This document shows, piece after piece, positions 8,238 through 19,331 of a DNA stretch of 64,000 nucleotides. Position 1 is the first letter of the stretch. Every line of letters starts with the position of its first letter. Below the pieces are notes generated by a model. The model worked only from the letters and a program-made list of their open reading frames with translations. It ran no database searches and was not told where the DNA came from. Source of the DNA: a phage; the sequence record PZ154897.1; one strand, 5' to 3'. A program made the position numbers and the translations under genes.

Positions 8238-9825
<1,588 letters not shown>

Positions 9826-9832
9826 AATAAAA

Positions 9833-9848
9833 TGGGCCTTGCGGCCCA
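9833..9848 (-). terminator. GC hairpin with GCAA loop followed by U-rich tract, between nrdB and denA
   Basis: minus-strand RNA GGGCC-GCAA-GGCCC then UUUUAUU. Confidence 0.45.
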
Positions 9849-9852
9849 CTCC

Positions 9853-11031
9853 TTAAAAGTATTTTTTAAAACTCATCATAACTTTATCATCAACATCATT
9901 ATCAATCTGTGCAACAAGGTAAGATGACAGTTCTACTTCTTGTGGCGCGGATTGAACATTATCAGAATTAAGATATTCACGAATCCAAGGATATGGGTGT
10001 TTAACCGGAGCATCGGTAATTGGGCATGGAAGACCACACTGTTTCATACGAGATACAGTTAAGTAATCAATAAAGCTCCACATGCTATTTGTATTTAATC
10101 CAGGAACATCACCATCTTTAAATAAATGAACTGCCCAGTCTTTTTCTTGACGGTTAACTTCCATGAAAATATCAACTGCTTCTTGTTCACACTCTTGAGC
10201 AATTTTAACCCATTCATCACCATCAGTTCCAAGCTGAAGTTGACGAATAATATATTGAGTGCCTTTAAGGTGAAGCTGCTCATCACGAGCAATGAACTTC
10301 ATAATCTTGGCATTACCTTCCATGATTTCCATGTTCTTATGGAAGTTAAATGTACACGCGAAAGATACGTAAAAACGAATAGCTTCCAGGGCGTTGATTA
10401 CATGAAGGCAAAGATAAAGAGATTTCATTAGTGCTCGTTTAGCTTCGGCTTCTTGTTTAATAGCTCGATTTAAACGAAAATCAGCATCAGGAGATTCTTT
10501 GGCTAGTTCTACAAATTCTTTAGCATTTTCCCATTCACGGGTCTTCTTAAGAACATCATCGTAATAGCGACCAATGGACTCAGCGCGTTTCATAATATCT
10601 TCATCTAATACAATCTCATCAAATACCTTTGACGGATCAGTATAAAGATTTCGCATGATATGGGTATATGAACGACTATGAATAGTTTCACTAAAAGTCC
10701 ATGTAGCAACCCATGTATCAAGACTTGGGTCTGAAATTAACGACATAAGTACAGCAGACGGTGCACGACCCTGAATGCTATCTAGAAGTGATTGATACTT
10801 CAGGTTATTAGTAAAAATATCTTGCTGATATTGAGGAAGCTTGTTAAATTGTGCAGCATCCATCATCAAGTTTACTTCTTCAGGACGCCAGAAAAATGAC
10901 AATTGCTTTTCGGTTAAATCTTCAAAAACTTTATGGCGTTGAATATCATAACGCGCAATACCAAGACCTGAACCGAAGAACATAGGTTCTTTTAAAACAT
11001 CAACTGGATTTGTATTAAAAACTGTAGACAT
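9853..11031 (-). CDS. nrdB: ribonucleotide reductase small subunit NrdB, uninterrupted (392 aa from ATG 11031)
   Basis: begins MSTVFNTNPVDVL; contiguous full-length ORF, no intron. Confidence 0.95.
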   Translation of the reverse strand: MSTVFNTNPVDVLKEPMFFGSGLGIARYDIQRHKVFEDLTEKQLSFFWRPEEVNLMMDAAQFNKLPQYQQDIFTNNLKYQSLLDSIQGRAPSAVLMSLISDPSLDTWVATWTFSETIHSRSYTHIMRNLYTDPSKVFDEIVLDEDIMKRAESIGRYYDDVLKKTREWENAKEFVELAKESPDADFRLNRAIKQEAEAKRALMKSLYLCLHVINALEAIRFYVSFACTFNFHKNMEIMEGNAKIMKFIARDEQLHLKGTQYIIRQLQLGTDGDEWVKIAQECEQEAVDIFMEVNRQEKDWAVHLFKDGDVPGLNTNSMWSFIDYLTVSRMKQCGLPCPITDAPVKHPYPWIREYLNSDNVQSAPQEVELSSYLVAQIDNDVDDKVMMSFKKYF

Positions 11032-11762
11032 TAATTTTTCCTCTTTAAAATTCTGCCGTGTTTCCAACCTGGCGGAATAATATCATCTTTACCTATAAGC
11101 GTGCATTCACTTCCATTATTAATCCATTTCTTACCGCGGATTCCTTTATAATCTCTTGGTTTTATTTTGTCAAACTTTGCATCAAGTTGATATGACCATC
11201 TAAATCCATAAGCATATTGAAATTTACCCTCGGCACAATATTTGATATTTGATCCGTTTCCATTAACTGACCGGGACGCTGCCGCAATAGAGTGAAAGGT
11301 TTCTATGAAATCCCCGTCTAATGAGAATTTATGTATTTCTATAGATGGGCATGCATATCTATTCACGTTTGATACATGCTGTTTAGTTTCGTTTTTATGG
11401 TGCTTGCCTAACATTCCTTTAGGATGAGGATTATTTTTCCAATATTTCTTAAAGAACTCAGAATTAGCTTTAGCAAATAATTTTCTGTGTAAGCTGTACA
11501 ATCTGTTATTAATTCTATTGCCAGCTTTATCTGTTGCCATTAACGTTAACGCAGAGGCAAGCCCAAAATGGCCTTCATTTATCTTACATAGTAGTAGATG
11601 AGCTATAAAATGTTCTCTGGCTGTTAATTCAACTAAATTTTCCTTATCATCAGAACCTCCCATACATCTAGGGATTATATGATGTGTCTCTTTATATTCT
11701 GATAAAGATTCCCGAGCCTGAGCTCGGGAAATTAGGTCGTTATAGATTTTTTGATAATTCAT
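11031..11762 (-). CDS. mobE: HNH homing endonuclease, MobE-like (243 aa)
   Basis: HNH motif HHIIPRCMGGSDDKENLVELTAREHFIAH; located between nrdA and nrdB as T4 mobE; stop/start overlap with both neighbours. Confidence 0.8.
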   Translation of the reverse strand: MNYQKIYNDLISRAQARESLSEYKETHHIIPRCMGGSDDKENLVELTAREHFIAHLLLCKINEGHFGLASALTLMATDKAGNRINNRLYSLHRKLFAKANSEFFKKYWKNNPHPKGMLGKHHKNETKQHVSNVNRYACPSIEIHKFSLDGDFIETFHSIAAASRSVNGNGSNIKYCAEGKFQYAYGFRWSYQLDAKFDKIKPRDYKGIRGKKWINNGSECTLIGKDDIIPPGWKHGRILKRKN

Positions 11763-14584: not shown

Positions 14585-14896
14585 TTACACCGCCATCTTT
14601 CCTTTAATTGGCGGGTGAGATTCGTAACCTTTAAGAACGAAATCTTTAGGCCTGAGTTTAAGAACATATTTTAATTGTTCTTTAGTAGAAAGATAGCGGA
14701 ATTTATAAGGTAGACCACTTATTACCAGCTCACAAAGCTCTTTAGGTTCACGACGTAAAATTTCTTTACATTGTTCTACGTGATTCATATAGATATGAGT
14801 ATTACCACCAGAAAATATCAAATCTCCTGGAATAAGATTACACATCTTAGCTACAATATGAACTAACGCAGCATATGATGCAATATTAAATGGAAG
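14585..14896 (-). CDS. td: thymidylate synthase, exon 2 (103 codons)
   Basis: LPFNIASYA...HPPIKGKMAV; in-frame continuation of exon 1 after intron removal. Confidence 0.9.
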   Translation of the reverse strand, partial: LPFNIASYAALVHIVAKMCNLIPGDLIFSGGNTHIYMNHVEQCKEILRREPKELCELVISGLPYKFRYLSTKEQLKYVLKLRPKDFVLKGYESHPPIKGKMAV

Positions 14897-15158
14897 CATT
14901 ATGTTCAGATAAGGTCGTTAATCTTATCCCGGAATTATATCCAGCTGCATGTCGCCATGCAGTTCAGACTATATCTTCAACTTGTTAAAGCAAGTTGTCT
15001 ATCGTTTCGAGTCACTTGACCCTACTCCCTAAAGGGATAGTCGTTAGGCATTTATGTAGAACCAAAGTCCTACAATTTAGCACGGGATTGTCTACTAGAG
15101 AGGTTCCCCGTTTAGATAGATTACAAGTATAAGTCACCTTATACTCAGGCCTCAATTA
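14897..15158 (-). ncRNA. group I self-splicing intron in td, 262 nt, no internal ORF
   Basis: starts UAAUUGAGGCCUGAGUAUAAGGUG after exon-1 ...CUUGGGU, ends ...AUCUGAACAUAAUG (terminal G); core matches T4 td intron as recalled, with P6 closed by a short loop instead of the I-TevI ORF. Confidence 0.85.
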
Positions 15159-15706
15159 ACCCAAGAAAACATCTACAGAACGTTGATACCACTGCAAATC
15201 CAAATAGCCATTACGCACATTAAACTGATAGAACATATGACAAGGCGGTAATGCCATATATTTAAGTTCAGCTGGATTCCACGCCGACACAATTTGACGC
15301 CTATCATTCGGCAGTTTTTTAATACGATCAATAACTTCTACAATTTGGTCTACACCGCCAAAATCACGCCACTGTTTTCCATAAATTGGACCAAGTTCAC
15401 CACTATGATATCCTAAATCTTTTGCTTGATTTTCGTAATTTTCATCCCAGACTGTTTTGCCTTGAATTAATGAATCATGCTGAATTAATCGTAAATCATT
15501 TACGTTAGTACTTCCTGACAAAAACCAAAGGAGCTCAGCAATACAAGCTTTCCAGGCGAGCTTCTTAGTCGTTACTGCAGGAAAACCTTTAGTTAAATCC
15601 CAGCGTAATTTAGTACCGAACAGAGCAATTGTTCCTGTGCCTGTTCGATCATCAGTTTCATAACCATTTTCCAGGATATCTTTAATTAAAAATTGGTATT
15701 GTTTCA

Positions 15707-15707
<1 letters not shown>
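15159..15707 (-). CDS. td: thymidylate synthase, exon 1 (183 codons from ATG 15707; ORF track used upstream TTG)
   Basis: MKQYQFLIKDILENGYETDDRTGTGT...; exon1+exon2 = 286 aa like T4 TS. Confidence 0.9.
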
Positions 15708-16736
<1,029 letters not shown>

Positions 16737-17468: not shown

Positions 17469-17696
17469 TTACTGCTCAATAAATCCTGTGTAAAATTCTA
17501 CATCTTCAGCATCCATACCGTCACAATATTCATTAACCATAAATTGTTTAAGACGATTTAAAGGACCTTCAATAACAACTGAAACATTGCAATTAGGATC
17601 ATTTAGTGCGCTTGTAATACGGAGTTCAGGATAACGATTACGAATAATTTCTTCAATATATTCAAAATCAACAACATCAATATCAATTTTAGCCAT
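17469..17696 (-). CDS. hypothetical acidic protein (75 aa) with own SD; also forms the C-terminal part of the gene 32 read-through frame
   Basis: ATG at 17696 preceded by AAGAGGAAAA. Confidence 0.5.
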
Positions 17697-18647
17697 GTTA
17701 TTTTCCTCTTTAATCATCATCAGCAGTATTGCCGATAGTTGTATAGTACCACAGTATGCTTTGGGGTCCGTGTCATCAGCACTAGATGAACTGCCAGAGC
17801 TTGAGCTCATAAAATCATCTTCAGTTTTTGTTTTGAAGTCATCAACATTGAATGCATCCAAATCATCAGCAACTTTATCAGCTTTCTTAGCGGCAGTTGC
17901 TGCGGCACCACCCATAGCAGCAGTTCCCATAACTTGACTGAACTTAGTGCTCAGTTCTTCAAACGATTTGAATTTATCTTTAGAAGTCATTTCAGAAAGG
18001 TCAACCATTTGTTCGAACAGTTCTTTCTGGAAAGATTCATCATCAATGTTTGGAATCGCAGATTGATTCAGGAATTTAGATTCGTCGTAGTTACTAAAAC
18101 CAGAAACTTGTTTAACTTTCAGTACAAAGTTAGCACCTTCCCACGGACAAGTTACATCAACAGGAGTTTCACCCATTTCAACATCAACTGCAATCATTGC
18201 ATTGATTTTATCCCAGATTTTCTTACCGAAACGATATTTAAATACTTTACCTTCATTTTCTGGAGCAGCTGGGTCTTTTACAACAAGAATGTTAGCCCAG
18301 TAAGAAGTTTTACGTTTAACAAGACCGTACTCTTTATTGTCAGTGTTATACAAATCATTTTTACTGATGTACTGACATACTGGACAAGAATCGTAATCAC
18401 CGTAGGTAGATGAGCATGTTTCGATATACCATTTACCATTTTTCTTGAAACCGTGATTTACAAGAAGTGCGAATGGTGCTTGTTCATCATTTTTAGACGG
18501 AAGAAAACGAATTACTGCTTGACCGTTACCCGCATTATCGAGTTTCAGTTTCCACTCGCCTTTATCTTCAGAAGAAAAACCACCTTTATTTCCAGCCAGT
18601 TTAGCCATTTGTGCAGCGAGTTCAGCAGTAGATTTACGTTTAAACAT
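17469..18647 (-). CDS. 32: single-stranded DNA-binding protein gp32; frame lacks a stop at the T4 position and continues to 17469 (392 aa)
   Basis: residues 1-294 match T4 gp32 through ...SSSSADDTD; the last 8 codons and stop of T4 (LDDLLNDL*) are absent and replaced by a promoter-like repeat. Confidence 0.85.
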
Positions 18648-18700
18648 TTTTATTTCCTTTTTTAATTTAATTAACAGTTGGTGCTATGACACTTTACCTC
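18648..18700 (-). promoter_or_regulatory. gene 32 translational operator / AU-rich leader
   Basis: minus strand ...UUAAUUAAAUUAAAAAAGGAAAUAAAAAUG, the classic gp32 autoregulatory leader. Confidence 0.65.
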
Positions 18701-19331
18701 ATAGCTGGCATAATTCGCAATACTCTGGGTCTTCGAGAGGTATCCAACCTGAGTTGAAATACTTTACCATCGATTTAGCAGTTGTATCAGTTATATTTAT
18801 ATTACCTTTAACTCTTCGCCATCCAGGAGTTTTACCGTACAGATTAGAGGATAATAATAACACATAATTCTCGTAAGCAATATGAGATAATTTCCAAGAC
18901 TCTATATTAGCTCGTGATGTTTTCCAAGGTCTAAAATCGTCACGGTTCATATAATTAGCCAATCTCATATGCTCTCTAACTTCCGGGTCTTTGGCTGGAT
19001 GAGTTTCACCACTCACACCAAATCCGCCGCCAGCATATACCAGATTAAAATAGTCTGGATTATCTCTGGCATTTACTTCAAGTTGGTATTTTCGCTCTGC
19101 TTCAATAACATCCAAATCATCATCAATTTGAATTATTTTAACGCTCGGTTTTTGAAGCATTACCGCATTTAAAAATCTTTTTTGTTTGCACGAGCTCCAG
19201 TATTCCTTTCCGGAAGAGTCATATATTATTCCATTCTCAAATGAGCAATTTAATTTACTGCCGATATAGTAGTACGGCGGAGTCTTATTTTTGACACGGT
19301 CTTCAAATGTAAACCAATATACTATATTCAT
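18699..19331 (-). CDS. segG: GIY-YIG homing endonuclease, SegG-like (210 aa)
   Basis: N-terminal IVYWF...YYYIGSK GIY-YIG motif; between genes 59 and 32 as T4 segG. Confidence 0.65.
   Translation of the reverse strand: MNIVYWFTFEDRVKNKTPPYYYIGSKLNCSFENGIIYDSSGKEYWSSCKQKRFLNAVMLQKPSVKIIQIDDDLDVIEAERKYQLEVNARDNPDYFNLVYAGGGFGVSGETHPAKDPEVREHMRLANYMNRDDFRPWKTSRANIESWKLSHIAYENYVLLLSSNLYGKTPGWRRVKGNINITDTTAKSMVKYFNSGWIPLEDPEYCELCQL
18794..18801 (-). promoter_or_regulatory. candidate late promoter TATAAATA about 150 nt upstream of gene 32
   Basis: exact TATAAATA on minus strand inside segG 3' end. Confidence 0.35.

Follow-up and report, generated by a model that had tools for sequence, protein, structure and literature searches.

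The td locus

The window (the whole stretch of phage DNA analysed here, 64,000 nucleotides) comes from a T4-like (Tequatrovirus) genome, and the 14-kb piece around the td intron shows 95-96% identity with many T4-like phages of Escherichia, Salmonella and Yersinia. On the minus strand, the genes are arranged in the order gene 32, frd.3, frd.2, frd.1, frd, a 68-aa ORF, td, nrdA.2, nrdA.1 and nrdA; the neighbours of td in the Pfam survey are nrdA.2 (DUF5496), nrdA.1 (DUF4326), frd and the 68-aa ORF. The td gene itself lies in two exons on the minus strand. Exon 1 (positions 15159-15707; 549 nt, codons 1-183) begins with the ATG at 15707 and ends in CUUGGGU, while exon 2 (14585-14896; 312 nt including the stop codon) begins with CUUCCA. 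Between them is an ORF-less td-type (IA) group I intron of 262 nt (14897-15158, minus strand). A preliminary description, prepared from the letters of the window, had placed a 262-nt td intron at exactly these coordinates, and the end of exon 1 and the two intron ends that it quoted are all correct.

The joined exons (549 + 312 nt) give 286 codons and a stop, i.e., the 286-aa thymidylate synthase named in the same description. In an end-to-end alignment, 278/286 residues of the spliced product are identical to the T4 enzyme. The protein spans the whole Pfam Thymidylat_synt profile (1-266 of 266, E value: 1e-95) and matches the T4 thymidylate synthase structure PDB 1TIS, residues 1-286 to 1-286 (E value: 1e-195). 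Exon 1 shows 93.6% nucleotide identity to that of T4, and over both exons 54 of 861 nucleotides and 8 of 286 residues are changed, counts which indicate purifying selection on td. The first codon inside the intron is a stop, an in-frame UAA at 15158-15156 with which the exon-1 ORF ends after VFLG, and the sole independent start in the conserved frame of exon 2 is the overlap with the terminal AUG of the intron.

The 68-aa ORF (15707-15913, minus strand) lies between frd and td, overlaps both by ATGA-type junctions and has no Pfam match. T4 has nothing at this position. The same ORF is present in phages PD112, CE1, BYEP01, C2-3 and GRNsp7, and a different ORF of about 115 aa occupies the frd-td spot in 215Ecol030PP, N2 and SYGD1. 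Further along, gene 32 is a 392-aa ORF (17469-18647, minus strand) in which one reading frame joins two Pfam domains, gp32 at residues 40-240 and Phage_FRD3 (Frd.3) at residues 318-392, the fusion junction lying at 17758-17774. Relative to T4, the fusion corresponds to a deletion of about 106 nt by which the last 11 codons, the stop and the terminator hairpin are gone. The identical gene 32-frd.3 junction occurs in phiC600P9, vB_Eco-B1.1 and GEP001, and the fusion is hence a real circulating allele. A 210-aa ORF (18699-19331, minus strand) without a Pfam match at E ≤ 0.001 is located between gene 59 and gene 32, where T4 has segG.

On the other side of nrdA, nrdB (9853-11067, minus strand) is one unbroken ORF that Pfam matches in full, and it thus has no intron. 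A mobE-like ORF with HNH and NUMOD1 domains (11031-11762, minus strand) is found between nrdA and nrdB, and a 144-aa GIY-YIG ORF (9415-9849, minus strand) directly downstream of nrdB.

Boundaries and fold of the intron

The intron extends from UAAUUGAGGCC (5' end, from 15158) to AACAUAAUG (3' end, at 14897), or in short form from UAAUUGAGGCCUGAG at 15158 to ...CUGAACAUAAUG at 14897. A covariance-model search, by which the preliminary description had proposed to check its assignment, was carried out with Rfam on all 64 kb and returned a sole match on the minus strand (15168-14945), RF00028 (group I intron). The score, far above what chance would give, was 76 bits (gathering threshold: 50; E value: 1.6e-17) and the match was not truncated, running over the full model (1-253 of 253). 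The intron ends in ...AUAAUG at 14897, i.e., in a terminal guanosine, and its removal restores the td frame exactly. It is inserted after the Gly183 codon, the same exon junction position as in T4, and has the further features of td-type IA introns, namely P7.1 and P7.2 between P7 and P3' as well as P9.1 and P9.2.

The P4-P6 domain and the P3-P7-P8 domain, including the P3/P7 pseudoknot, can all form (all positions below are on the minus strand). P1 (15145-15164) pairs the exon sequence UUGGGU (15164-15159) with the internal guide GCCUGA (15150-15145), the last exon U pairing with G9 as a U.G wobble at the 5' splice site. The P2 hairpin (15127-15144) has 7 bp and a GUGA loop. P3 (15120-15115 with 15003-14998; span 14998-15120) forms the pseudoknot with P7, and P4 (15111-15106 with 15087-15082; span 15082-15111) encloses P5 (15101-15099 with 15093-15091). 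A 2-bp P6 encloses P6a within 15048-15081, where P6a has 8 bp (15074-15067 with 15062-15055) and the loop UUUG (15066-15063), the site at which T4 carries 754 extra nt including I-TevI; the hairpin reads GUAGGAC-UUUG-GUUCUAC at 15073-15056. The preliminary description had P6 closing with a short loop and the I-TevI ORF of T4 looped out of P6. The short hairpin is present and the T4 ORF does lie in a loop, but in both cases the element is strictly P6a, an extension of P6, and not P6 proper.

The guanosine-binding helix P7 (15042-15038 with 14971-14967; span 14967-15042) was placed manually and does not vary among the 16 introns aligned. The IA-specific hairpins P7.1 (15037-15026) and P7.2 (15022-15009) are situated between its strands. 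The P8 hairpin (14978-14997) has 7 bp and shows an A-U to U-A compensatory change in three sequences. P9, with a GCGA tetraloop, P9.1 and P9.2 occupy 14908-14962 (P9.1 and P9.2 at 14944-14908). In P10 (14894-14897), next to the terminal G at 14897, the first three bases of exon 2 can pair with intron nt 6-8 (15153-15151) in 3 bp: G-C, A-U and G.U.

A fold based on energy only reached -81.8 kcal/mol (z = -4.0 against 200 shuffles) and, with no prior structure supplied, gave 12 helices, i.e., P2, P3, P4, P5, P6, P6a, P7.1, P7.2, P8, P9, P9.1 and P9.2. P1, P7 and P10 were placed by hand before the full structure was scored. Pairing was then counted in 16 aligned td introns, each from a different source (15 distinct sequences). 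Standard pairs were found in 99.2% of cells, as compared to 30-46% when the 3' partners were slid by 1-3 columns, a comparison biased in favour of the structure in that it was derived from one of the aligned sequences, the compensatory changes being the informative part. Such two-sided changes occur in 8 pairs, located in P6a, P8, P9.2 (two pairs) and P10, a signal from few pairs in closely related sequences. None of 500 shuffles attained any of the five pairing measures. All P1 pairs (100%) form in each of the 15 distinct sequences, and the variation in three of them is confined to one side; P10 has one covarying pair (G.U / U-A) and is unpaired in four sequences. P3, P4, P5, P6 and P7 are invariant and therefore neutral, carrying no covariation signal. 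With P1-P9.2 and P10 all able to form at this level of pairing, the structural check of P1-P9 suggested in the preliminary description came out in favour of its reading.

Relation to the T4 intron and to other short td introns

Compared by BLAST with the T4 td intron (1017 nt, NC_000866), the window intron consists of T4 nt 1-94 (100%, 94/94) joined to nt 849-1017 (96.4%, 163/169), which bears out the match to the T4 core noted in the preliminary description and gives the deletion boundaries that it had proposed to map: T4 nt 95-848 (754 nt) are absent. I-TevI occupies nt 133-870 of the T4 intron, so that 716 of its 738 ORF nucleotides are gone and the last 22 are left. The T4 sequence upstream of the ORF holds the I-TevI promoters, a late promoter among them, the operator and the ribosome-binding-site hairpin. 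Of the I-TevI frame, six codons and the stop survive from its very end (W F Y I N A stop; 15044-15064, minus strand). These codons double as the 3' strand of P6a, that of P6, and J6/7; the 22 nt remain because they are part of these elements, and the overlap between the end of the I-TevI ORF and the intron core has been described (PMC3073962). The junction, GGACU/UUGGUUC, has a microhomology of 1 nt. The 8-bp P6a stem is intact, and the deletion is the largest that spares it.

The window intron and that of T4 differ at six positions, all in the 3' part. The J7/9 linker has two of them, and the P7.1 loop, J8/7, the P9 tetraloop and P9.2 have one each. In J8/7 the window has the Rfam consensus base. 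The P9 tetraloop is changed from GUGA in T4 to GCGA, both GNRA, and a G.U pair of P9.2 in T4 is A-U in the window. Judged by the predicted structure, all six are harmless. The intron does not encode a GIY-YIG homing endonuclease. A tblastn search detected no I-TevI homologue anywhere in the 64 kb (best E value: 0.35, outside the intron), and the two small ORFs of the intron have no Pfam match. No free-standing endonuclease gene adjoins td and none lies between td and nrdA, the nearest endonuclease-like ORF being the mobE-like HNH gene past nrdA. The RF00028 match and the T4 alignment together support the proposal of a natural minimal td intron without a homing endonuclease.

Short td introns were sought by intron blastn in 50,697 phage records, and about 39 records have one that covers no less than 80% of the query at a single place; none is identical to the window intron, the best reaching 98.5%. 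A search with the spliced td gene retrieved 595 records, among which td lies in one place (intronless or with a short intron) in 414 and is split by a long intron in about 167. Short introns hence make up about 6-7% of td genes in the phage collection, a census that depends on how BLAST matches were joined into places and on a collection with many near-duplicate isolates. At least seven distinct short architectures, including that of the window, were distinguished among aligned representatives. The 262-263 nt form of the window is shared by 215Ecol030PP, PD112, CE1 and BYEP01, with the identical junction and the same insertion site. The other forms have other deletion end points or a different P6a hairpin. 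A 320-nt form (C2-3, SYGD1, Pinarejo, HP3 and others) keeps CCCUUUAAUAA directly after P6a together with the last 58 nt of the loop (ORF region); the stretch that it retains immediately ahead of I-TevI is the one in which the operator and late promoter of T4 lie. A 445-nt form (G28, vB_EcoM_112 and F1) keeps the first ~28 I-TevI codons, the deletion lying between two 9-nt CATTTTAAA repeats, and in the 315-nt intron of Klebsiella phage EI, where the deletion falls between 5-nt GGAAT repeats, the I-TevI start codon is left with four codons after it. P6a is replaced by an unrelated 4-bp hairpin in the remaining three: GUUC-UUUU-GAAC at 254 nt in N2 and CJY920, GUUC-GAAA-GAAC at 250 nt in SEA1, and CAGC-AGUA-GCUG at 254 nt in GRNsp7. 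These 4-bp hairpins covary and are not derivable from the T4 form by simple deletion.

The window allele has a substitution set of its own (A in J8/7, AA in J7/9 and GCGA in L9). Its junction is found on at least three 3' haplotypes, that of the window, that of PD112, CE1 and 215Ecol030PP, and that of BYEP01, which combines the junction of the window with an N2-like 3' half. About 10 sites vary among the td intron haplotypes. Recombination between them is clear and, as BYEP01 shows, blurs any td intron phylogeny; a tree from these sites would not tell loss of I-TevI from its never having been acquired. A scan of IMG/VR with the 19-nt junction gave no match; three JGI metagenome matches to the same 19 nt were rejected as unrelated chance matches.

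In GenBank, short-intron loci are entered as two thymidylate synthase CDSs, at times with spurious small proteins between them (e.g. Pinarejo, 1204-1527), and no intron feature is annotated in the short-intron phage records inspected. Short td introns have been in public genomes for years, unannotated, and annotators routinely split td into two 'thymidylate synthases', missing the intron.

The intron has also crossed phage genera. In Klebsiella phage EI (Marfavirus) it is 97.5% identical to that of the window over the last ~158 nt, with td exons at 70.7%; in Salmonella phage SEA1 (Gelderlandvirus) the exons are at 71.8% and the intron at 88-98% (88% over the last ~158 nt). Of the first 84 nt of the EI and SEA1 introns, 82 agree with the window. 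The 3' haplotype of EI agrees with the window at 153/157, tying with 215Ecol030PP and C2-3 among the three closest, and shares the A in L7.1, the GCGA in L9 and the A-U in P9.2. Intron identity being far above exon identity, the comparison implies that the td intron moved between phage genera far more recently than the td genes diverged.

The preliminary description left open whether the endonuclease had been lost or never acquired; the comparative evidence favours loss without proving it. We consider it probable that the td intron lost I-TevI when its entire P6a loop (754 nt) was deleted. Loss is favoured because the different partial-deletion alleles show repeated erosion of I-TevI, and because the intron lineage has spread by transfer, which normally needs an endonuclease. 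Some short alleles keep I-TevI fragments and endonuclease loss is, as these sequences have it, ongoing in td introns.

An alternative of lower standing, which we regard as unlikely, takes the 262-nt allele as an ancestral empty td intron and the UUUG loop of P6a as the site of a later invasion by the I-TevI cassette. Insertion and precise deletion leave the same sequence, and therefore the sequence itself cannot decide between loss and gain. The four-base loop is clean and its microhomology is 1 nt, whereas the deletions in G28 and EI are repeat-mediated; this speaks for an empty site, and the occurrence of the junction on three 3' haplotypes suggests an old, recombining allele. Reviews take group I introns as ancestrally ORF-less (PMC3073962, PMC3984707). 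The td introns of N2/CJY920, SEA1 and GRNsp7 also lack an ORF but have unrelated mini-P6a hairpins, and judging by these lineages ORF-less td introns may be old. On the other hand, the retained parts differ by only about 2-4% from I-TevI-bearing introns, a near 3' haplotype (Klebsiella phage EI) retains I-TevI start codons, and the several independent partial deletions mean that loss is frequent, all of which favours loss. The invasion model, for which the T4 sunY intron and I-TevII provide an analogy with a test described in a review (PMC3984707), would also have the fused junction resemble the homing site. When the I-TevI homing site UCUUGGGUCUAC was locally aligned against the intron, the fused junction ACUUUGGUUCUAC showed no significant likeness and was rejected as a mimic, 478 of 2000 shuffles scoring at least as well and the best match lying elsewhere. 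Were the empty-site account true, the 262-nt and 250-254-nt lineages would form a natural before-and-after pair for the entry of an endonuclease into a ribozyme, and could test the later extension of the ORF into the core ('core creep') and the persistence of ORF-less introns as passive shields against I-TevI.

It is highly improbable that td is broken, with the insert a dead intron relic or spacer and the halves separate or non-functional ORFs, even if public records do give the halves as separate CDSs, sometimes with small hypothetical proteins within the intron. All core helices are intact with compensatory changes across relatives, and the reading frame and splice junction are exact. The intron opens with a stop and exon 2 has no start of its own beyond the terminal AUG overlap, while the 54/861 nucleotide against 8/286 residue changes from T4 indicate purifying selection. 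Least probable of all, to the point of being negligible, is a laboratory or assembly artefact (an engineered ORF deletion of T4 td or a collapsed assembly): engineered td introns without the ORF and of comparable length are in wide use (PMC8565351), but the exons here are 6% diverged from T4, the surrounding 14 kb match various wild isolates at ~96%, six natural substitutions separate the intron from that of T4, and four phages that were isolated independently, with records naming Poland and China, have the identical junction.

Proposed splicing and maintenance, and known systems

The mechanism that we propose is taken from general knowledge of group I introns and of T4 td. After transcription, the td RNA would fold into the P1-P9.2 ribozyme, and a free guanosine bound in P7 would attack the phosphate after the exon-1 U of the P1 U.G wobble. 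The 3'-OH of exon 1 would in turn attack after the terminal G of the intron, with P10 aligning exon 2, to yield the mRNA for the 286-aa thymidylate synthase. Unspliced td RNA would terminate translation at the UAA that opens the intron (PMC8565351). Engineered ORF-deleted td introns splice in vivo (PMC8565351), and the deletion of the P6a loop should therefore not impair function; we infer that the 262-nt intron would be active in splicing.

With I-TevI gone, the intron would not home by itself, and its movement would depend on ordinary recombination or on I-TevI supplied in trans. As the intron splits the I-TevI recognition site, the td allele would be expected to be immune to co-infecting producers of I-TevI. 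It would be kept since only base-perfect excision restores td (PMC2988022). Introns lacking homing endonuclease genes are known to be mobilised by free-standing endonucleases, as in the trans homing by mobE and in collaborative homing (PMC2790892, PMC2988022, PMC2993671). Escherichia phage N2 carries a free-standing I-TevI paralogue (2024-2654 of the N2 locus, minus strand) about 570 nt downstream of a td gene with the ORF-less 254-nt intron, and the two are a candidate for a collaborative or trans-homing pair.

A 2010 review states that all three T-even introns encode their own endonuclease genes (PMC2993671), and our literature search found no description of a natural td intron that is entirely ORF-less. 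Endonuclease genes of T-even introns are known to decay, e.g. I-TevIII in T4 nrdB (PMC2988022, PMC2790892), and it is textbook knowledge that homing endonucleases go through a cycle of invasion, fixation, decay and loss (PMC5009752). The window intron is a real but expected stage of mobile-element decay, and known views stand. It exemplifies, in the best-studied phage intron, the last stage of this life cycle, in which the ribozyme outlives the mobility gene. Together with the partial-deletion alleles it provides a natural series for the rate of endonuclease-gene decay, and the allele series could show what retains an immobile intron and how introns cross phage genera. Sandegren and Sjöberg (2004) reportedly observed that the endonuclease genes of several T-even introns had suffered deletions and that the introns had recently been transferred horizontally.

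Among known systems, the closest is the T4 td intron (IA2, with I-TevI), an experimentally characterised self-splicing intron. The two have the same insertion site, splice-site sequences and helices P1-P9.2, and the T4 core is identical to that of the window except for the P6a loop, where the window lacks the 754 nt and with them autonomous homing. The T4 nrdB intron with its defunct I-TevIII is similar in being a T-even group I intron with a decayed or absent endonuclease; however, T4 nrdB retains a truncated ORF and has a neighbouring, mobilising mobE, whereas no ORF is left in the window td intron and no endonuclease gene is found between td and nrdA. Engineered ORF-deleted td introns, made for splicing studies or, in a theophylline-dependent form, used in SIBR-Cas, likewise keep the ribozyme core with a shortened P6a loop, and self-splice in E. 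coli and other bacteria (PMC8565351). Those introns are man-made, with a restriction site or an aptamer at P6, whereas that of the window is natural and has a 4-nt loop on the native P6a stem. The 262-nt sequence is a compact, evolution-tested ribozyme resembling the engineered tools for gene control.
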